Assembly (NCBI GenBank): GCA_964539515.1
Contig: CAZIJO010000001.1
Coordinates: forward strand, 33,172-97,171
Direction of reading: 5' to 3'
Length of the DNA stretch: 64,000 nt
Source: an uncultured Bifidobacterium sp.
GTDB taxonomy: Bacteria; Verrucomicrobiota; Verrucomicrobiia; Limisphaerales; JADLHS01
The notes beneath the pieces were generated by a model. The model saw nothing but the letters and a program-made list of their open reading frames with translations, was not told where the DNA came from and did no database searches. This document shows positions 169-9,237 of the stretch, one piece after another. Numbering within the stretch: the first letter of the stretch is position 1; each line of letters starts with the position of its first letter. The position numbers and the translations under genes were made by a program.

Positions 169-740
169 GCGAAAAGCAAAAATCCGATTCGCCGACCACG
201 CGCCGCACCTTCCTGCGGAACGGCGCCCGAATCGCGGCGATGACCGGGCTTGGCGCGCTGGCCGGCGTGGTGGCCAGCCGGAGTACGGCCGAGGGTTGGG
301 TCTGGCAGATTGATCCGCAGAAATGCCTCCGCTGCGGCAATTGCGCCACGAAGTGCGTGCTCGAACAGTCCGCGGTGAAGTGTGTCCATGCGTTCGCCAT
401 GTGCGGCTATTGCAATCTCTGCACTGGTTACTTCGAGCCGGAGCCGAACGCGCTCACGACCGCGGCCGAGAACCAACTCTGCCCGACGGGGGCCATCCAA
501 CGTTCGTTCGTGGAGGATCCGTATTACGAATATCGAATTGACGAAAAGCTTTGCATCGGTTGCGCCAAATGCGTCGAGGGTTGCAATCGCTTCGGCAACG
601 GTTCCCTGTTCCTGCAAATCCGTCACGACCGCTGTGTGCATTGCAACGAGTGCGCCATCGCCCGCACCTGTCCCGGCGACGCCTTCCGCCGCGTCCCGGT
701 CAGCCAGCCGTATCTGCTCAAGACCACCCACGCGCACTGA
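165..740 (+). CDS. Tat-exported multi-cluster 4Fe-4S ferredoxin (NapG-like)
   Basis: ATG 165. Twin-arginine signal SPTTRRTFLRNGARIAAMTGLGALAG. Ferredoxin Cys motifs CLRCGNCATKC, CGYCNLC..CPTGA, CIGCAKCVEGC, CVHCNECAIARTCP. The longer GTG-51 form in the ORF track is Gly/Arg-rich and overlaps the upstream CDS. Confidence 0.85.
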   Translation: MSEKQKSDSPTTRRTFLRNGARIAAMTGLGALAGVVASRSTAEGWVWQIDPQKCLRCGNCATKCVLEQSAVKCVHAFAMCGYCNLCTGYFEPEPNALTTAAENQLCPTGAIQRSFVEDPYYEYRIDEKLCIGCAKCVEGCNRFGNGSLFLQIRHDRCVHCNECAIARTCPGDAFRRVPVSQPYLLKTTHAH

Positions 741-742
741 CC

Positions 743-2161
743 ATGCATGATTTACGATTTACGATTTGTGGTTTACGCGCCGCACATCCAACCACGCGTA
801 AATCGTACATCGTAAATCGTAAACTTCTTCGGCTGCTCCTGGGTGTGGTCACGCTAGCCACGTTACCGCTGGTGAACCTGTCCTCCCTCGCGGAATCCCG
901 CTTCCCGCCGCCGGATTTCAGCGAAACGAACCATCAGCTGCCCTTCACCACCACACCGCCGGCCCGGGCAGAATGGTTGCAATACCTTGACGTTGCCGTG
1001 CTGGCCGGCGGCTTGATCGTTGCGGTCTGGTTGATCTACCAACGCCGATCGCGCCGCGGGCTCTTCTGGCTTTCGCTGTTTTCGCTCGCGTATTTCGGTT
1101 TCTGGCGATTGGGTTGCATCTGCGCCATTGGCGCGCCGCAAAACATCATTCTGGGTCTGTTCGATGCCGGCTACACGGTGCCGCTGACGGTTATCGCGTT
1201 TTTTGCCCTGCCGCTGGTCGTCGCCCTGTTCGCCGGCCGCGCGTTCTGCGCCGGCGTCTGTCCGCATGGGGCGTTGCAGGATTTGTTGCTGATCAAACCG
1301 GTCAAAGTCCCCGCCTGGTTGGAACACGCCCTTGGGGTTTTGCCGTTCATCTTTCTCGGTTTCGGTCTCTCCTTTGCCGCCACCGGCACGGGTTTTCCGA
1401 TCTGCCGCTACGATCCGATCGTGCCGGTTTTCCGGCTGAACGGTCCGGGCCTGCTCATCGCTTTGGCGGCATTCACGCTCATCCTGGGAATGTTTGTGGG
1501 GCGACCCTACTGCCGCTTCCTTTGTCCCTATGGCGCCCTGCTCAAACTCGCCGCGCTCGCCTCGAAATGGCGCGTGCGTGTCACCCCCGACCTCTGCACC
1601 CAATGCCAGCTCTGCGCGAACGCCTGTCCGTTTGGGGCGATGCGCGAGCCGTCGTCCGGCACCGTCGAACCCAAACGGCTCGGGCCCGAACGCCGCCGGC
1701 TCGGCGGGCTCGTCCTGCTGGTGCCGGTGCTGATCGCGGGCGGCGCCGGGCTGGGCAGCCAGCTGGCCGTGCCGGTTTCGAAATTGAATCCGACCGTCGA
1801 ACTCGCCGAGCGCCACCTCCGCCAGCAAGAAAAACGCATGGATTACGGCGTGATGACGCCCGAGACGCTCTCCCTTCAGCGTGCCGAAAACGATCCCGGG
1901 GCGTTGCTGAAATCCGCCACCGACCTGCGCCGTCGCTTCGGGTGGGCGTGTATCGCTTTTGGTGGCTGGGTCGGCTTGGTGTTGGGCGTGAAGCTGGTGA
2001 GTCTCTCAGTGCGGACCTTGCGCACGGATTTCGAGCCGGACCGGGGAGCCTGTTTCGCTTGCGCCCGGTGTTTTCGTTCTTGTCCGCAGGAACTGGTGCG
2101 CGCGGGACTGATGCCCGCGAATGAGCTGCCCCCGGCGACAGCGACGGGCGTGACAACATGA
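743..2161 (+). CDS. Membrane polyferredoxin of the NapH/MauN/NosR type
   Basis: Two CX3CP motifs in the hydrophobic region (FCAGVCPHGALQD, YCRFLCPYGALLK), CTQCQLCANACP, and a distal CFACARCFRSCP after two more hydrophobic helices. The start is uncertain: ATG 743 puts the heptad palindrome inside codons 3-27. Confidence 0.8.
   Translation: MHDLRFTICGLRAAHPTTRKSYIVNRKLLRLLLGVVTLATLPLVNLSSLAESRFPPPDFSETNHQLPFTTTPPARAEWLQYLDVAVLAGGLIVAVWLIYQRRSRRGLFWLSLFSLAYFGFWRLGCICAIGAPQNIILGLFDAGYTVPLTVIAFFALPLVVALFAGRAFCAGVCPHGALQDLLLIKPVKVPAWLEHALGVLPFIFLGFGLSFAATGTGFPICRYDPIVPVFRLNGPGLLIALAAFTLILGMFVGRPYCRFLCPYGALLKLAALASKWRVRVTPDLCTQCQLCANACPFGAMREPSSGTVEPKRLGPERRRLGGLVLLVPVLIAGGAGLGSQLAVPVSKLNPTVELAERHLRQQEKRMDYGVMTPETLSLQRAENDPGALLKSATDLRRRFGWACIAFGGWVGLVLGVKLVSLSVRTLRTDFEPDRGACFACARCFRSCPQELVRAGLMPANELPPATATGVTT
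749..823. repeat. Imperfect ~30-bp inverted repeat built from 7-bp units (TTTACGA x4 / TCGTAAA x4) around a 16-nt spacer
   Basis: Left arm is GATTTACGATTTACGATTTGTGGTTTACGCG. Right arm is CGCGTAAATCGTACATCGTAAATCGTAAAC. Aligning left arm against the reverse complement of the right arm by hand gives 25 of 30 matches. Confidence 0.8.
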
Positions 2162-4005
2162 CAAATCCTTCCGCCAAACTGAATCCAGCCGATTTGGACG
2201 GCGGCGGGAAGCCCAGCGCCACGCAGCCTCCAGCAAACCCGGCATCGCCCGAAAAAGTGGTGTCGTTGCTGCGCCCTGCTACCATCGTCCGAAATGTCGG
2301 CGCGCTTGCGCGTGCCGCCTGGATGGCAGCTGCCTTTTGTCTGCTGCTCTGCGCGGCGATGCTTTATCAACACCGGATCGCAGCCGAGCATGATCCGTGG
2401 AAATCGCCTCAGCTGCTGGCGCTGAAGGCGAAACTGCGGGCGGCCCCGGCGGATGAAGCCCTGCGGGATGAAATCCGTCAGCTCGATCTCAAATTTCGCC
2501 AGCGCTATTTCCGCCGTCTGGCGCTCAATGTCACCGGCGGCTGGCTGCTGGTCGCCGGGGTCGGAGTGCTGTTGGTGGCCGCAAGATCAGCCGGGCGCCT
2601 GACCCAACCGCTCCCCCGGCCGCAGCGCCGGACAGACGCCCAATCGCTTGCCTGGCTGGCGGCGTCCCGGGCGCGGTGGGGGGTGACCGGCATCGGCGCG
2701 GTCGTCGTCACGGGTTTGCTGGCACTGGCGTGTACGAGCCAATCCCCGTTGTCGGATCGCGCTGCGGACCCCAACCAGCTGCTCGCCGGCGGTGCAGGCG
2801 CGGCCGCCGATGTTCCGTCCCTGGCCGAGTTCCTGGCCAACTGGCCGAGCTTCCGGGGCGCCGACGGCGGCGGTGCGCGGAAAGCCGATTGGATCCTTAA
2901 TTTCGACGCGGCGTCCGGTGGGTCTGTCGTCTGGAAATCGCCGGTCCCCGCGCCCGGTTTCAATTCGCCGGTCGTTTGGAGTAATCGGATCTTTATTTCC
3001 GGCGGTGACGTGAAGAAGCGCGAAGTGTTTGCCTACGACGCCGGGGACGGAAAACTGCTCTGGCAACGCGCCGTCGCGAATGTGCCCGGCAGTCCGGCCA
3101 CTTTGCCCGAGATTCCCGATGCCACCGGTTACGCTGCCCCAACGATGGCCACGGATGGTCGGCGGGCCTTTGTGCTGTTTGCCAACGGCGATCTTGCGGC
3201 ATTCAAGTTCGACGGAATGCTCGCCTGGGCGAAGCACATCGGCGTGCCGAAGAACATGTATGGCCATGCCAGTTCGCTGGCCATCGCGCCGGGCAAACTC
3301 ATTGTGCAACTCGATCAGGATGAGGGCGCGCCTGGTGGTTCGAAGCTACTGGCTTTCGACTGCGCGACGGGACGCCAGCTTTGGGAACGCCCCAAGCCCA
3401 CACACGGTTCCTGGGCGTCACCCATTATCGTCGAAGCGGCGGGCAAGTCCCAGATCATCACGCTGGCGCTGCCGTTCGTAATGAGTTCGTCCCTCGCCGA
3501 CGGCAATGAGTTGTGGCGGGCGGAACTGATGGAAGGCGAAATCACGCCCTCGCCCGTTTTTGCGGGGGGATGGCTGATCGTGGTCAATCCGGGGAACAAA
3601 CTGTTCGCGCTTCGTCCGGACGGCGCCGGTGACGTCTCCAAATCCCACGTCGGGTGGACAGCCGAGGACAGCATTCCCGATGTAACCAGTCCGGTCAGCA
3701 ACGGGGAATTGGTTTTTACCGTGACGAGTGGCGGGGTGCTAACGTGTTTTGACCTCAAGGACGGAAAACTAATCTGGCAAAAGGAATTGGAGCTGGAGGT
3801 GCAATCGTCCCCGGCCATTATCGGCAGCCAGTTGTTTGTGCTCGGCACCAAGGGTCAGGCCGTCCTGATGAGCGTGGGCCGGGAATTCAAGGAAGTGGGC
3901 CGGGTCAAGTTTGACGACACGTTCCACGCCAGCCCGGCGATGGCGAACAACCACCTGTATCTGCGCGGGGCGACCAACCTGTGGTGTCTGGGGGAAAAGA
4001 AATGA
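2158..4005 (+). CDS. Membrane-anchored PQQ-like/BamB-family beta-propeller repeat protein
   Basis: ATGA overlap with the previous stop. Three hydrophobic helices lie in the first ~230 aa. Repeated propeller blades follow with ...G(K/R/N)xLW(Q/E/R)... motifs (LLWQRAV, RQLWERPK, NELWRAEL, KLIWQKEL). Confidence 0.85.
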   Translation: MTNPSAKLNPADLDGGGKPSATQPPANPASPEKVVSLLRPATIVRNVGALARAAWMAAAFCLLLCAAMLYQHRIAAEHDPWKSPQLLALKAKLRAAPADEALRDEIRQLDLKFRQRYFRRLALNVTGGWLLVAGVGVLLVAARSAGRLTQPLPRPQRRTDAQSLAWLAASRARWGVTGIGAVVVTGLLALACTSQSPLSDRAADPNQLLAGGAGAAADVPSLAEFLANWPSFRGADGGGARKADWILNFDAASGGSVVWKSPVPAPGFNSPVVWSNRIFISGGDVKKREVFAYDAGDGKLLWQRAVANVPGSPATLPEIPDATGYAAPTMATDGRRAFVLFANGDLAAFKFDGMLAWAKHIGVPKNMYGHASSLAIAPGKLIVQLDQDEGAPGGSKLLAFDCATGRQLWERPKPTHGSWASPIIVEAAGKSQIITLALPFVMSSSLADGNELWRAELMEGEITPSPVFAGGWLIVVNPGNKLFALRPDGAGDVSKSHVGWTAEDSIPDVTSPVSNGELVFTVTSGGVLTCFDLKDGKLIWQKELELEVQSSPAIIGSQLFVLGTKGQAVLMSVGREFKEVGRVKFDDTFHASPAMANNHLYLRGATNLWCLGEKK

Positions 4006-4032
4006 GCGATCCGATCCTGGTTGAATCATCAA

Positions 4033-6678
4033 ATGCCCATTGACCTGACCATTGCGGACGAGGCCGTGGCACGCATAGGCCGCAAGCCCGAAGCGTTGAT
4101 CCCGATCTTGCAAGCGTTGCAGGAGCGTTACGGCTATCTGCCGGAGGCGGCGTTGCGTCGCGTCTGCGAGACAACGCAGATCAAGCCCGCAGCGGTCATG
4201 GGCGTGGCATCGTTCTATGACATGTTCCGGATGCAGCCCACCGGCAAACATGTGGTGCGGGTGTGCCGGGGGACGGCCTGTCACGTGGCCGGCGCGGAGC
4301 GCGTGGAGGACGCGCTGCGGCGGCATCTGCAAATTCCCAATGACGCCGATACCGATCGCGACGGGCAGTTCACCATCGAACAGGTCGCGTGCCTGGGCAC
4401 ATGCACCCTCGCACCGGTGGTACGCATTGGCGAATCCACGATGGGTTATGCCACCGCCGAAAAAGTGCCCGAGCTGATGCGGGATTTTCTCGCGAGCCAG
4501 GCCATGGCAACGACCGTGAAGTCCACCGAAGGCAAGGGCGGCAATGGGGGTGCCGGCATCGCCGAAATCCACGTCGGGCTCGGCTCGTGTTGCATGGCGA
4601 AGGGGAGCGACCGTCTGTTTCATGCCCTGCGCGAGAGCGCGGCGACGGGGGGCGTAAACGTGGTGGTGAAGCGGGTGGGGTGCGTGGGGATGTGCCATCG
4701 GACGCCGATGGTTGAGGTCGCGACGCCGGGGGGCAAAGGTGAGTTTTACGCCGGGCTTTCGCCGGAGCAGGCCCGGGCGTTGGTCCAACGGCATTTCAAA
4801 CCGCGCGGTTTGGTCCAGCGCGCGAGTCGGCTTTGGACGCGCGTTTTGGATGGCTTGTTACTCGACGACACGGGCGAGCAACGCAAGGTGCAGCATTTCT
4901 CGATGAGCAAGCGCGACCCGGCGGTGCGGGCGTTTCTGGACCGGCAGGTCCACATCGCCACGGAACATTTCGGACGGCTGGACCCGTTGGATTTGGACGA
5001 GTATTTGGCGAACGATGGATTTGCCGCGTTGGCGAAATGTTTGGGTAGTGATTTGAACAACCGCCCTCACCCCAACCCTCTCCCCCAAGGGAGGGGGAAT
5101 GGTTCGCCAGCGTTTGAAAAGGCGAAAATCGGAGATGACCCAGGGGTGTTGGAGCGATCCGTAGACGGACGACTGCTGTTCCCTCTCCCTGGGGGAGAGG
5201 GTCAGGGTGAGGGCGAGCGTGGCTCGCAAAGTGAAATTGCTCAGAGCATCCTGCCATCGGCAGTTACGCGGGAAGCCATCATCTCAACGATCGAGAAATC
5301 CGGGTTGCGCGGGCGGGGTGGGGCGGGATTTCCCTCCGGACAAAAATGGCGCGTCGTTGCCCAGCAAGCCGGTGATACAAAATATGTGATCTGCAACGGC
5401 GACGAGGGCGATCCCGGGGCCTTCATGGACCGGATGATACTCGAATCATTTCCCTACCGGGTCATTGAAGGGCTGGCGATTGCGGCGGTGGCGGTCGGAG
5501 CGCGTGAAGGGATTTTCTACATCCGTCACGAGTATCCGCTGGCGGTGAAGCGGGTGCGCGCAGCCATTGCCGAATTGGAGCAACGGGGCTGGTTGGGGGA
5601 AAGACTGCTGGGGGTGGGAGCGTTCCTAACCCCATCCTCTTCCCCATCTGATGGAGAGCGGGTGGCGAAGCCGGGTGAGGGGTTGGCGGCTGGCTACCCG
5701 CTCAAGCTCTCGGTTTTCGAGGGCGCCGGCGCGTTTGTTTGCGGCGAAGAGACGGCGTTGATCGCTTCCATCGAAGGCGAGCGTGGCATGCCGAAGTTGC
5801 GCCCGCCGTTTCCAGCGCAGGAAGGACTCTGGGACAAGCCGACGCTCATCAATAATGTCGAGACGCTGGCCATGGTGCCGTGGATCCTGCGGAACGGGGC
5901 GGAGCAGTTTGCCGCCATCGGTACCGCCAAGAGCAAAGGCACGAAGGTTTTTGCCCTGGCGGGCAAGATCCGCCGCGGCGGCCTCATTGAAGTCCCGATG
6001 GGGACAACGATTCGCGAGATCGTGGAGGAAATTGGTGGCGGCGCGGCGGAGGGGCGGCGGTTCAAGGCGGTCCAGATCGGCGGGCCGAGCGGGGGCTGCG
6101 TCCCGGCGCGGCTCGCGGACACCCCGGTGGATTTTGAATCGTTGCGCGAAGTGGGTGCGATCATGGGCAGCGGCGGACTGGTGGTGCTCGACGACACCAG
6201 CTGCATGGTGGACATCGCGCGGTATTTCCTCCAGTTCACGCAGGATCAATCCTGCGGCAAATGCACGTTCTGTCGCATCGGGACCAAACGGATGCTCGAC
6301 ATCCTCGAGCGCCTTTGCACCGGCAAAGCGACCCGCTCCCACCTCGAAGAACTCGAACGGCTCGCGGCCCAGGTCGGGGCCGGCAGCTTGTGCGGGCTGG
6401 GTAAAACCGCCCCCAATCCGGTGCTGACGACGCTCCGTTATTTCCGCGAAGAGTACGAAGCGCACCTGCAAGGCCGTTGTCCCGCGCGTAAATGCACCGC
6501 GCTGATCCATTACACGATCAACGCCGATTGCACCGGTTGCACCCTCTGCGCGCAGCAGTGTCCGGTGGAAGCGATCCCGATGCTGCCGTACGCCCGGCAC
6601 GTGATTGATGACGCCAAGTGTACCCGATGCGACACATGTCGGCTGGTGTGTCCGCATAATGCCGTGGAGTTGAAATGA
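4033..6678 (+). CDS. NuoE-NuoF fusion flavoprotein (HydC/HydB- or HoxE/HoxF-like NAD(P)H dehydrogenase module) with C-terminal 2x[4Fe-4S] ferredoxin
   Basis: NuoE-type 2Fe-2S (CRGTACHVAG...CLGTCTLAPV). A second thioredoxin-like 2Fe-2S (GSCCMAKG...CVGMCHRTP). NuoF motifs GLRGRGGAGFPSGQKW, ICNGDEGDPGAFMDR, CGKCTFCRIG. Terminal CTGCTLCAQQCP / CTRCDTCRLVCP. The ORF track starts at TTG 4021; ATG 4033 is preferred but not proven. Confidence 0.9.
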   Translation: MPIDLTIADEAVARIGRKPEALIPILQALQERYGYLPEAALRRVCETTQIKPAAVMGVASFYDMFRMQPTGKHVVRVCRGTACHVAGAERVEDALRRHLQIPNDADTDRDGQFTIEQVACLGTCTLAPVVRIGESTMGYATAEKVPELMRDFLASQAMATTVKSTEGKGGNGGAGIAEIHVGLGSCCMAKGSDRLFHALRESAATGGVNVVVKRVGCVGMCHRTPMVEVATPGGKGEFYAGLSPEQARALVQRHFKPRGLVQRASRLWTRVLDGLLLDDTGEQRKVQHFSMSKRDPAVRAFLDRQVHIATEHFGRLDPLDLDEYLANDGFAALAKCLGSDLNNRPHPNPLPQGRGNGSPAFEKAKIGDDPGVLERSVDGRLLFPLPGGEGQGEGERGSQSEIAQSILPSAVTREAIISTIEKSGLRGRGGAGFPSGQKWRVVAQQAGDTKYVICNGDEGDPGAFMDRMILESFPYRVIEGLAIAAVAVGAREGIFYIRHEYPLAVKRVRAAIAELEQRGWLGERLLGVGAFLTPSSSPSDGERVAKPGEGLAAGYPLKLSVFEGAGAFVCGEETALIASIEGERGMPKLRPPFPAQEGLWDKPTLINNVETLAMVPWILRNGAEQFAAIGTAKSKGTKVFALAGKIRRGGLIEVPMGTTIREIVEEIGGGAAEGRRFKAVQIGGPSGGCVPARLADTPVDFESLREVGAIMGSGGLVVLDDTSCMVDIARYFLQFTQDQSCGKCTFCRIGTKRMLDILERLCTGKATRSHLEELERLAAQVGAGSLCGLGKTAPNPVLTTLRYFREEYEAHLQGRCPARKCTALIHYTINADCTGCTLCAQQCPVEAIPMLPYARHVIDDAKCTRCDTCRLVCPHNAVELK
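5063..5214. repeat. REP-doublet/MITE-like palindromic element lying in-frame inside the NuoEF gene
   Basis: Arms are GCCCTCACCCCAACCCTCTCCCCCAAGGGAGGGGG (5063-5097) and CCCTCTCCCTGGGGGAGAGGGTCAGGGTGAGGGC (5181-5214). They are reverse complements at ~31/35 positions. The right arm itself folds as CCCTCTCCC-TGG-GGGAGAGGG. Translated, the element gives PHPNPLPQGRGN...PLPGGEGQGEGE. Confidence 0.8.
5625..5685. repeat. Second short GC-rich palindromic repeat unit in-frame inside the NuoEF gene
   Basis: CCTAACCCC...GGGGTTGG termini pair with one bulge. There is an internal CCATCTGATGG palindrome. The element translates to LTPSSSPSDGERVAKPGEGL and interrupts the conserved segment just upstream of GAGAFVCGEETAL. 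Confidence 0.6.
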
Positions 6679-8264
6679 GCGACCCGTTCACCATCAGCAT
6701 CGATCGCCGGCCGGTTCAAGTCCGACCGGGCGAAAGCGTGTTGACCGCGGCGCGCCGGCTGGCCATTGATATTCCGACCCTCTGCTATCTGGAAAAGTGC
6801 GGGCCGCTCAACACCTGCCAGGTCTGCCTGGTGAAGCTTAACGGCAAGCTGGTGCCGTCCTGCGGGACAAAGGTCGCGCCCGGAATGGTGGTGGAGAGTG
6901 AGACGGAGGAAGTGCACGAGGCGCGGCGCACGGCGTTGGAGCTTTTGTTCAGCGATCATGTGGGCGATTGCCTGTCACCCTGTCACCGGTTGTGCCCCCT
7001 GATGCTGAACATTCCGCAAATGTTGCGGCACATTGAAGCGGAACGATTGGACGACGCGATCGCCACGGTACGGCAGGCTTTGCCGCTGGCAGGCGTGCTG
7101 GGGCGGTTGTGTCACCATCCATGTGAACAGGGCTGTCGGCGGGGCAACTGGGATTCGCCCGCCGCGATCCGCGACATGGAACGCTTTGTCACCGATCAGG
7201 ATCTCAAAAATGCCGGGCCCTACGTGCCGGGGACCAAGCCCGCCTCGGGGAAGACGGTGGTCATCATTGGCGCGGGACCGGCAGGGTTGGCGGCCGCCTA
7301 TTATCTCTCGCGCGAGGGACATGGTGTCACCGTGGTGGATCGTCAGCCGCGCGCCGGAGGCACTTTGCGGGAGGTGAGTGAAAGCCAGCTGCCCGGTTCC
7401 GTTTTGGAAGCGGAACTCGCCCTGCTTGCGCGGCAGGTCGTTGATTTCAAGCTGGGAGTGGAACTTGGCCAGCACGTCACGGTGGAGGGGCTGGCGCGCG
7501 GGTTTGGGGCGGTATTAGTGGCGACGGGAGAGCTGGGGCAGGAAGATGGTACCCGGATGGGCTTGCCGATGGCGGGGAAATTTGTCAAAGCGGATCCCAA
7601 CACCTGCCAGACTTTGATCGAGAAGGTCTTCGCTGCCGGCAGTGTGGTGCGGCCGCAGAAACAACTCGTGAAAGCCATGGCCGAAGGACGGGCGGCGGCG
7701 GAGTGCGTGCACCGGTTTTTGAGCGGCCAGCCCGTGCGGCGACCGGAAAAGCCCTTCTCCAGCATCATGGGCAAGGTGGATCCGGGCGAGCTGAAGGCGT
7801 TTCTCCGCGCGACCCACGCGGGCGGGAGCGTGTCGCCCTGCGACCGTTGTGCCGGGCACACGCGGCAGGAAGCGGCCCTGGAGTCGTCGCGTTGTCTGCA
7901 CTGCGACTGCCGTTCCTCCGGCAATTGCGTGTTGCAGCACTACGCGCAGACGTATGGGGCGAACGCGAGCCGTTTCCGCACGGAGCGCCGGGAGTTTGAC
8001 CAGCAGCTGCAACCGGGCGGCATCATTTTCGAACCGGGCAAATGCATCCTGTGCGGCATCTGCGTGAAGCTCACCGAAATGGCGGCCGAGCCGCTGGGCT
8101 TGACCTTCATCGGGCGCGGCTTTGATGTGAAGCTGAGCGCGCCATTTAGTCAGGCCATCGAGGCAGGGCTGCAGCAGGTGGCGGCGGAGTGTGTGCAGCA
8201 TTGCCCGACGGGCGCGCTGGTTTTCAAGAACGGGAAACCGAATTCCGCCGCCGGGGAAAAATGA
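6675..8264 (+). CDS. Iron-sulfur flavoprotein: NuoG-type N-terminal 2Fe-2S + GltD-like 4Fe-4S/FAD domain + C-terminal 4Fe-4S region
   Basis: ATGA overlap with the NuoEF stop. CYLEKCGPLNTCQVCLV (2Fe-2S). HHPCEQGCRRG (GltD-type cluster). A single dinucleotide fold VVIIGAGPAGLAAAYYL, then VFAAGS...AMAEGRAAA. Terminal CLHCDC..C and CILCGICVKL...CP motifs. Confidence 0.8.
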   Translation: MSDPFTISIDRRPVQVRPGESVLTAARRLAIDIPTLCYLEKCGPLNTCQVCLVKLNGKLVPSCGTKVAPGMVVESETEEVHEARRTALELLFSDHVGDCLSPCHRLCPLMLNIPQMLRHIEAERLDDAIATVRQALPLAGVLGRLCHHPCEQGCRRGNWDSPAAIRDMERFVTDQDLKNAGPYVPGTKPASGKTVVIIGAGPAGLAAAYYLSREGHGVTVVDRQPRAGGTLREVSESQLPGSVLEAELALLARQVVDFKLGVELGQHVTVEGLARGFGAVLVATGELGQEDGTRMGLPMAGKFVKADPNTCQTLIEKVFAAGSVVRPQKQLVKAMAEGRAAAECVHRFLSGQPVRRPEKPFSSIMGKVDPGELKAFLRATHAGGSVSPCDRCAGHTRQEAALESSRCLHCDCRSSGNCVLQHYAQTYGANASRFRTERREFDQQLQPGGIIFEPGKCILCGICVKLTEMAAEPLGLTFIGRGFDVKLSAPFSQAIEAGLQQVAAECVQHCPTGALVFKNGKPNSAAGEK

Positions 8265-8352: not shown

Positions 8353-9237
8353 ATGAAAATGAACTTGAAAAATGCGGCCGTCGGGCTGGTCGCCGTGCTG
8401 CTGACCGCCGGTTGCCGTACGCCCGCCGGGCGAAGCGCGGACGCCGGCCCGCAGGGCAGTTTCACCGGAACGTTGGGCCTGCAACTCTACAGTCTGCGCG
8501 ATCAATTCGCGAAAGATGTGCCGGGGACGGTCAAATTGGTGCACGAGTTCGGCTTTCGCGAGGTGGAACTGGCCGGCACTTACGGGATGGTGCCGGAAGA
8601 ATTGCGGGCTTTGCTGGCAGTCAATCACCTGAACGCAGTTGCGGGGCATTTCAGTTACGAACGTTTTCGGGATGACCCGGCGGGCGTCGCCAAGGAAGCC
8701 CAGGCCCTCGGCTTGGATTACGCCGGAGTTGCGTGGATTCCGCACGACGGCCCCCTCACGGCGGCCAAGGTGCGCGAGACCGCGCAGGTTTTCAACCGCG
8801 CCGGCGAGGTGCTGGCCCGCCACGGCATCAAGTTTTACTACCACAATCACGGTTACGAATTCGTGCCGTATGAGGATGGCACTTTGTTCGACCTGCTGGT
8901 CCGCGAAACCAAGCCGGAGTTTGTCAGTTTTCAGATGGACGTGGTTTGGGTGGTGTTCCCCGGTCAGGATCCGGTGAAGTTGCTGGAAAAACACGGCCAC
9001 CGCTGGTCTTCGATGCACGTCAAAGATTTAAGGAAAGGGGTGGCCACTGGCTCGCTGTCCGGCAGCACGGATCCGAAAAACGACGTGGCGGTGGGCAAAG
9101 GGCAGGCGGACTGGCCGGCGCTGCTCCGCGCCGCCAAACAGGCGGGCGTAAAATACTATTTTATTGAGGACGAATCGCCTTCCGTGTTGCAACAGATTCC
9201 AGAGAGCTTGATGTATCTGGAACAGGTTCAGTTTTGA
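8353..9237 (+). CDS. Sugar phosphate isomerase/epimerase (xylose-isomerase-like TIM barrel) with lipoprotein-type signal
   Basis: ATG 8353 gives [21 protein letters not shown] (lipobox). The body (LQLYSLRD..., [28 protein letters not shown]) resembles the AP-endonuclease-2/xylose-isomerase-like TIM family. The upstream part of the track ORF overlaps the previous gene. Confidence 0.75.

Follow-up and report, generated by a model that had tools for sequence, protein, structure and literature searches.

The window analyzed here (the whole stretch of contig CAZIJO010000001.1 under study, 64 kb) contains an open reading frame (ORF) for a NuoE-NuoF-type flavoprotein that carries, in frame, a palindromic DNA element of ∼150 nucleotides (nt) bounded by two inverted units of the BoxC/PIT/TM_ECO repeat (hereafter BoxC/TM, where TM is the triplex motif). 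We favor, at a probability of roughly 80%, the explanation that a permissive linker of this protein received a non-autonomous palindromic element with BoxC ends, which has been carried there and translated as a disordered loop. This is supported because the insert is absent from solved and many close homologs, is modeled as disordered, and represents a full-length copy from a repeat family. The features concerned are as follows.

4021-6678, + strand: host gene, a NuoE-NuoF-type flavoprotein ORF of 885 amino acids with a TTG start at 4021 (ORF list).
5047-5259, + strand: insert A, amino acids 343-413 (71 residues), delimited by the gap in phmmer alignments to PDB chains.
5061-5219, + strand: full-length polar element of ∼150 nt resembling a MITE (miniature inverted-repeat transposable element), with two inverted BoxC/TM units and an asymmetric spacer (nhmmer profile).
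5064-5097, - strand (the G-rich strand): left arm, a BoxC/TM unit (sequence, ortholog comparison, and consensus test).
5098-5180, + strand: spacer of the element, evolving at about the synonymous rate among six orthologs.
5181-5213, + strand: right arm, a BoxC/TM unit reading CCCTCTCCC-TGG-GGGAGAGGG-TCA-GGGTGAGGG, the only exact match to the TM_ECO consensus in the window.

An inverted-repeat search placed the arms at 5062-5090 and 5187-5215 (29 nt, 90% complementary). An earlier note, made from the letters of this DNA, had described two inverted G/C-rich units ∼85 bp apart; comparison of 5063-5097 with the reverse complement of 5181-5214 gave 31 of 35 matching positions, with 83 nt between the units. 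The self-folding of the right unit proposed there was also recovered, as the hairpin pattern CCCTCTCCC-TGG-GGGAGAGGG at 5181-5201, and the reading frame is open throughout the element, within ORF 4021-6678, and yields the peptide that the note had quoted. Each BoxC/PIT/TM terminus consists of three 9-nt blocks, CCCTCACCC, CCCTCTCCC, and GGGAGAGGG, an arrangement that appears compatible with the published purine-motif triplex. The left arm reads CCCTCACCC-CAA-CCCTCTCCC-CCAA-GGGAGGGGG on the + strand and is partly decayed, with one mismatch in a hairpin block and a linker changed from CGG to CAA; the orthologs carry CCCTCACCCCGGCCCTCTCCCCCAGGAGAGGG. The number of occurrences expected by chance in the window was 0.00 both for the right-unit hairpin pattern and for the left 21-mer CCCTCACCCCAACCCTCTCCC, and the few matches to CCCTCACCC or CTCTTCCCC elsewhere in the window are isolated 9-mers in ordinary sequence. 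As DNA, the 168-nt stretch folded at -50.7 kcal/mol (z = -6.6); as RNA, it reached -100.7 kcal/mol (z = -7.4). In neither case did any of 200 shuffled sequences fold as well.

The BoxC/PIT/TM_ECO consensus is CCCTCNCCC N3-6 GGGNGAGGG N3 GGGNGAGGG (Holder et al. 2015, PMC4666352). The right arm at 5181-5213 matches this pattern exactly, and the reverse complement of 5064-5097 matches it with one mismatch. In Escherichia coli MG1655, TM_ECO is reported in 23 copies, all intergenic, and the motif in >260 genomes; it formed a triplex in vitro, is of unknown function, is associated with local sequence instability, and is known in E. coli as inverted ("palindromic") pairs, and BoxC/PIT showed no promoter or terminator activity in E. 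coli in vivo and left polymerases unaffected (PMC4666352). When the right arm was used as a BLAST query, matches were found in all 5426 of 5426 complete E. coli genomes, at a median of 16 places each and with up to ∼88% identity over 42 nt among the matches listed, none of them under an annotated feature. The units of the window, by contrast, are not intergenic: ORF 4021-6678 contains them, and conserved Pfam domains flank them on either side. Intergenic location characterizes the E. coli copies and forms no part of how the motif is defined by sequence.

A scan of one genome per species for the 22-nt unit core returned at least 120 loci, distributed over Verrucomicrobia, Planctomycetes, Alpha-, Gamma-, and Deltaproteobacteria (including Enterobacter and Klebsiella), Acidobacteria, Myxococcales, and Chloroflexi. 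Their common layout is CCCTCACCC-N3-CCCTCTCCCC-variable loop-GGGGAGAGGG, and their flanks are unrelated. Dispersed occurrence was thus seen across genomes, and within the 64 kb of the source organism covered here the only copies seen are those inside the host gene.

At least 120 loci were also recovered when metagenomes were scanned for two units in the arrangement of the window. Total lengths among the matches listed peak at 141 and 150-152 nt, and the copies are polar with an asymmetric conserved interior: on the left side, the linker of the arm is CGG and GGGAGAAT..TTCGCCG comes after the arm, and the right side reads GCTGTTCCCTCTCCCC...GGGGAGAGGG-TCA-GGGTGAGGG. Clustering of the doublet spacers with blastn-short produced small clusters only, and polarity was set from these motifs and from a family profile of 167 positions built from 16 clearly oriented, unrelated metagenome copies. 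This profile matched window positions 5061-5219 on the + strand over model positions 6-165 of 167 (87.4 bits, E = 3.3e-26); the - strand of the same stretch scored 52.5 bits, and nothing else in the window matched. None of the 240 loci listed from the two scans (120 single-unit and 120 doublet) is a nuoEF homolog. In BLAST searches of plasmid records, the arms found matches and the full-length element never did. The arms are thus pan-bacterial and the ∼150-nt element a narrower family. Family members elsewhere lie both between genes and inside other genes. One doublet of the verrucomicrobial style (L012, 5401-5593) is on a contig labelled as a Bifidobacterium metagenome-assembled genome (MAG), which may reflect contamination of the bin.

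Insert A follows the helix ending ...DGFAALAKCLG and precedes the point at which the NuoF core begins. Query residues 305-342 pair with residues 98-135 of 9bov_B and residues from 414 onward pair with those from 136 onward; residues 135 and 136 are contiguous in the solved homologs 9bov_B and 8oh5_B, in which insert A is absent. The short linker that the earlier note had given for homologs is therefore real, but its estimate of a ∼65-residue loop was too low, the insert having 71 residues. In the AlphaFold model (120 homologs, predicted template modeling score 0.78), residues 357-408 and 536-554 are coil with a predicted local distance difference test (pLDDT) value of <50, the only other segments below 50 being four short ones of 3-10 residues (1-3, 85-87, 587-596, and 598-601). 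Given the absence from solved homologs, the disorder in the model, and the family copies elsewhere, the central proposal of the note, a dispersed palindromic repeat tolerated as a loop in an interdomain linker, is upheld. Conservation of the segment in distant orthologs, which the note had put forward as the sign of a genuine domain, was not found among the solved homologs. A genuine conserved domain was ruled out as an identity for the insert, which is missing from solved and many close homologs, is modeled as coil, and has a neutral spacer.

Insert A is composite, comprising the BoxC/TM doublet and a remnant of another repeat, and a second insert, B, which the earlier note did not list, is located further into the protein.

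5242-5267, + strand: single arm, now decayed, of another palindromic repeat, part of insert A (ortholog DNA).
5620-5688, + strand: insert B, amino acids 534-556 (AFLTPSSSPSDGERVAKPGEGLA), in frame in a loop of the flavin mononucleotide (FMN)-binding domain and missing in PDB homologs.

The arm at 5242-5267 is CAGAGCATCCTGCCATCGGCAGTTAC and encodes SQSILPSAVT, which is SQSLLTSAAT in orthologs (CAGAGCCTCCTGACGTCGGCTGCTAC); a complete hairpin of this SQSLLTSAAT-type repeat is present at site B of ortholog L245 (4498-4611). The palindrome of insert B, at 5625-5682, represents a "palindromic TM" variant that has decayed. At this site, solved homologs have 3-4 residues (9bov_B runs from 254 to 258), the intact form of the repeat is found in ortholog L001 as CCCCTCACCCCGTCCCTCCCCCCATCGGATGGGGAGAGGGTGGCGAAGCCGGGTGAGGGG, and the window copy folds no better than shuffled sequences (z = -0.1).

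The window protein was aligned with 119 homologs at 72-89% identity over aligned positions. The linker that carries insert A (site A) ranges from 6 to 113 residues and exceeds 20 residues in 92 of these 120 sequences, and the location of insert B (site B) has 5 residues in most but up to 97 (>5 in 43 of 120); a third linker in the same alignment is nearly constant in length. The extra residues at the two sites are translations of several distinct repeats. The TM doublet gives RPHPGPLPQERENRSP...LSPLPGGEGQGEGER or, frame-shifted, FPLTPALSPGEREN..., the palindromic TM variant gives PLTPSLSPSDGERVA..GEG, and other repeats give SQSLLTSAAT, GLGVRQSSGA...CRSPRRWR, TGFQPV...QASSLS, and others. The DNA of two repeat types forms strong hairpins in ortholog L245 (-82.5 and -61 kcal/mol). 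A heptamer-array peptide, SEIRNPKSEI, recurs at site A in many homologs; in L003, an in-frame tandem array of the heptamer AAATCCG encoding this peptide directly follows the doublet (∼9000-9040).

On a quick neighbor-joining tree of the masked alignment, the repeat states of sites A and B are very patchy. For example, the window protein, P0002, and P0005 have the site-B repeat, but their sisters P0003 and P0004 lack it and have the 5-residue base state. The flavoprotein gene of L244 contains two full-length copies of the element, which score 90.6 bits (site A) and 79.4 bits (site B); the latter is an independent insertion of the same family.

Occurrences in other genes were counted as in frame only when Pfam domains were found on both sides; a screen for stop-free spans over-calls in G+C-rich DNA. 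Single units were in frame at 7 of 130 listed loci, in genes for an ABC exporter, IleRS, DsbD (Cedecea), an AMP-ligase, an ABC-F protein, an FAD oxidase, and LigA. Eight in-frame doublets were verified among the 120 listed, many contigs being too short to judge. One separates the receiver domain from the Hpt domain in a hybrid histidine kinase, one Pro_dh from Aldedh in PutA, and one the two domains of TrpE; the rest lie in a B12-radical SAM enzyme, another histidine kinase, a GT21 glycosyltransferase, and two AcrB-family genes on unrelated metagenome contigs (L170, 4888-5052; L231, 1435-1581). The AcrB doublets occupy the same position, at about residue 500, which may be another repeat-collecting site. 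Both orientations were found in genes and, in these small numbers, the orientation with two open frames was the commoner. In-frame survival is common because 3 of the 6 frames of the family consensus are free of stop codons.

Two BoxC/TM units are also in frame in the annotated rbbA gene (WP_012977670.1) of plasmid pAB510d of Azospirillum sp. B510 (L247, 3001-3128; ...LPLPPGERAGVRG...PPHPNPLPGGERG...), where their mutual arrangement is opposite to that in the window. Because this is a cultured organism, in-frame placement is not an artefact of MAGs. At the locus studied here, an assembly or MAG artefact was likewise ruled out, by six independent assemblies together with this in-frame case on the complete plasmid of a cultured isolate.

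Six orthologs (the window, L001, L002, L003, L244, and L246) agree in the junctions, orientation, and frame of the doublet at site A, and the anchor-to-anchor length is identical, at 342 nt, in three of the six. In the conserved domains, these orthologs are 0.52-0.69 identical at third codon positions. The spacer, at all positions, is 0.45-0.81 identical (mean ∼0.53), which is indistinguishable from those third positions, and the top value of 0.81 belongs to the ortholog pair with the highest third-position identity. In the profile alignment, spacer identity among the window, L001, L002, and L003 is 0.45-0.68 compared with a family mean of 0.44, a modest excess. By contrast, the arms are 0.85-0.96 identical, and 0.79-1.00 identical at third positions, across the six orthologs, and they exceed the conserved-domain third positions in all 15 of 15 pairs (Fisher P from 4e-4 to 7e-15). 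The copy in the window is the most eroded of the six. These patterns point to one old insertion, inherited vertically in at least six lineages. The event would not be recent. The spacer may be read as free to drift while the frame stays open, and the arms as kept at the nucleotide level; measured against synonymous sites and against their own spacer, the arms clearly do not evolve neutrally.

The conservation of the arms would reflect either a direct constraint on DNA or RNA or homogenization by gene conversion. Gene conversion from other family copies in each genome (concerted evolution) would overwrite the arms without any need for a local function. The conserved blocks are identical in every family copy across phyla, the spacer varies from copy to copy and is not conserved, and arms of ∼40 nt suffice for short-patch homologous exchange; however, no donor copies were seen within the 64-kb window or the flanks of three orthologs, and the asymmetry of the left and right linkers (CGG versus TCA) has been kept. 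Overall, this process seems somewhat unlikely. That the arms are instead kept as a nucleic-acid element at the locus, with an in-frame placement that is adaptive and not merely tolerated, is considered unlikely. Such an element could be a stable mRNA hairpin at the domain boundary, slowing ribosomes for co-translational folding or cofactor loading or shaping mRNA stability, or else a DNA structure or protein-binding site. It would account for arm identity of 85-96% at all three codon positions in the six orthologs, for the strength of the RNA fold (-100.7 kcal/mol, z = -7.4), and for the position of in-frame copies elsewhere, mostly at domain boundaries, but this last point is predicted equally by simple tolerance of linker locations. 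Moreover, the existence of homologs at ∼80% identity that have no doublet or have unrelated repeats at the site indicates dispensability, the left arm and site-B repeat of the window are decaying, and no promoter, terminator, or polymerase effect of BoxC/PIT was observed in E. coli (PMC4666352). The broader proposition that BoxC/TM blocks are under direct purifying selection inside ORFs, their recurrent placement at domain boundaries being functional as an mRNA roadblock or DNA signal, seems similarly improbable; if true, such selection would offer a first clue to the function of a repeat that has lacked a known role since the 1990s.

It is very unlikely that the orthologs acquired the element independently at a specific insertion target, the arms being alike through recency. 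The patchy content of sites A and B on the protein tree, the same element at site B in other lineages, and the shared position in two unrelated AcrB contigs are what such targeting would produce, but six orthologs with the same junctions, orientation, and frame, three of them with exactly 342 nt between anchors, are not readily explained in this way, and spacer identity (mean ∼0.53, with 0.81 in the closest pair) is above the background of 0.44 and is highest for the pair that is closest at third positions. We regard as highly improbable a genuine selected protein feature, for example a length-critical tether in an electron-bifurcating complex, with the repeat-like character of the DNA being incidental. 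Length is kept in several orthologs while the sequence drifts, and 92 of 120 homologs have a long linker, as a tether would require; against this, linker length varies from 6 to 113 residues and the insert is absent from solved, active homologs, the spacer shows no amino-acid constraint, conservation is at the level of the nucleotides and not of the peptide, and the DNA itself belongs, over its full length, to a dispersed repeat family.

Under the favored explanation of a tolerated BoxC-ended insertion, the element would have inserted once, in the ancestor of a verrucomicrobial clade, into the flexible linker that joins the N-terminal ferredoxin-like modules to the NuoF FMN core. Its survival would be owed to the largely stop-free character of the family and to its landing in one of two permissive surface sites, where a disordered Pro/Gly/Glu-rich loop could be translated without disturbing the enzyme. 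In related lineages, the same two sites have taken up other palindromic repeats again and again; they would act as sinks in which repeats accumulate and turn over, and instability near TM motifs (PMC4666352) may add to this turnover.

Several observations weigh against this explanation. The nucleotide-level conservation of the arms is not as predicted for a purely neutral, tolerated passenger. Pattern, short-motif, and profile searches revealed no further copies in the remaining 63.8 kb of the window, and none were found in the ∼55 kb flanking three orthologs, so that multi-copy status in the source genome is putative. No target-site duplication was detected in the flanks of the 16 oriented copies, where the palindrome extends 3-6 nt further, and no transposase context was seen at the plasmid BLAST matches, no insertion-sequence library having been compared; the description of the element as mobile therefore comes from its distribution only. 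The pattern scans demanded intact arms and their counts are lower bounds, which makes the frequencies rough, and most of the sequences are metagenome-assembled. Finally, we infer translation of the insert from the preservation of the reading frame.

Comparison with known repeat systems places the element as follows. Both arms have the defining three-block sequence of BoxC/PIT/TM_ECO, and the local instability reported in E. coli fits the hypervariability of both insert sites. Unlike the E. coli motif, which is reported to be always intergenic, the units of the window are inside an ORF and read through, and they belong to a polar ∼150-nt element with a partly conserved interior. Rickettsia palindromic elements (RPEs) are palindromes of ∼100-150 bp that lie in frame in unrelated Rickettsia housekeeping genes and are translated and fold-compatible (Ogata et al. 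2000, 2002; PMC10969869). The phenomenon is the same here: a palindrome of this size is in frame in several unrelated genes (8-9 with doublets and 7 with single units), including those for PutA, AcrB, TrpE, histidine kinases, IleRS, and LigA. However, the sequence family appears unrelated; the ends of the window element are a motif common across phyla; the hosts are free-living Verrucomicrobia and environmental phyla and not an obligate intracellular genus; and the peptide is of low complexity and modeled as coil. Membership of RPE families 1-10 is not claimed, the host being a verrucomicrobium and the arms of BoxC type.

Like the MITEs Correia, ERIC, and Nezha, the element is small (∼155 nt), non-coding, and dispersed, with long terminal inverted repeats (arms matching at 31 of 35 positions), no transposase gene, and occasional in-frame intragenic copies. 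It differs from them in that its terminal repeats are self-folding three-block units and in having neither a target-site duplication nor a known parent insertion sequence or transposase. Repetitive extragenic palindromic (REP) sequences and bacterial interspersed mosaic elements, mobilized by REP-associated tyrosine transposases (RAYTs), are also short, G/C-rich, imperfect palindromes that often form inverted pairs. A GTAG/CGTC terminal tag marks most REP families (PMC3733652). The units of the window begin with CGCCCTCACCC and have no GTAG/CGTC (a RAYT gene was not searched for), and REPs are species-specific and, by definition, extragenic, whereas the present unit is near-identical across phyla. 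The REP label applied in the earlier note does not hold in the strict sense, the ends being the BoxC/PIT/TM triplex motif (PMC4666352). The element would thus not be an RPE-family member, and it is not a REP in the RAYT sense.

The unit family (BoxC/PIT/TM) and the RPE-like phenomenon are already known. In the searchable literature, no description was found of BoxC-type units inside ORFs, of the polar ∼150-nt element, of two repeat-collecting sites in NuoF/HydB-type flavoproteins, or of nucleotide-level conservation of the arms inside a gene, and searches for the encoded peptide motifs returned nothing. BoxC/PIT/TM is among the most widely shared short bacterial repeats, and its function and mode of spread are still unknown. 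A copy within a gene provides an internal neutral yardstick, in the form of synonymous sites and its own spacer, and the question of whether arms are constrained or homogenized becomes answerable from complete genomes. The results would also carry the concept of selfish DNA within protein-coding genes beyond Rickettsia, to Verrucomicrobia that are free-living and to other phyla, explain the recurrent PLPxGEGxGEG and LTPALSPxERE peptides in predicted proteins for the purposes of annotation, and map two naturally insertion-tolerant sites in NuoF/HydB-type flavoproteins for protein engineering.

The host protein is a fusion of a NuoE-like [2Fe-2S] domain, a second thioredoxin-like domain, a NuoF/HydB-type FMN flavoprotein, and C-terminal 4Fe-4S domains. 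Pfam matches were obtained to 2Fe-2S_thioredx (two stretches), Complex1_51K, SLBB, NADH_4Fe-4S, and Fer4, all above their cut-offs, with the exception of Fer4_21 (34.1 bits versus 35). This domain set and the solved homologs identify the gene as a NuoF/HydB-type FMN flavoprotein. The nearest solved relatives are 9bov_B and 8oh5_B, among HydB/HoxF/NfnB-like chains (E ∼1e-197), and the named homologs are from Verrucomicrobia. The corresponding database entry, P0001, starts 4 codons later and has 881 residues. The host gene is functional, because the amino acids of the flanking domains are constrained (92-96% identity among orthologs) while third positions diverge (identity of only 0.5-0.7). A pseudogene was ruled out by the open frame and by this strong constraint.

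The neighborhood of the host gene was examined in the ORF list and in the orthologous loci.

6675-8264, + strand: downstream partner gene, GltD-like (Fer2_4/Fer4_20/Pyr_redox_2), from the ORF list and the Pfam matches of syntenic genes in orthologous loci.

The start of the partner gene overlaps the stop of the flavoprotein gene (ATGA at 6675-6678). Rfam at gathering thresholds gave no family anywhere in the window, and ARAGORN found no tRNA or tmRNA there. Gene order is conserved between window positions 551-8264 and L001-L003 and L244-L246, comprising a polyferredoxin (Fer4_5), a PQQ_2 beta-propeller, the NuoE-NuoF fusion, and the GltD-like protein. Inverted heptamer arrays (TTTACGA / CGTAAAT) are present at 740-823, with arms of 29 nt that are 86% complementary; they fall in the 5' part of ORF 551-2161 and are probably upstream of the true polyferredoxin start.

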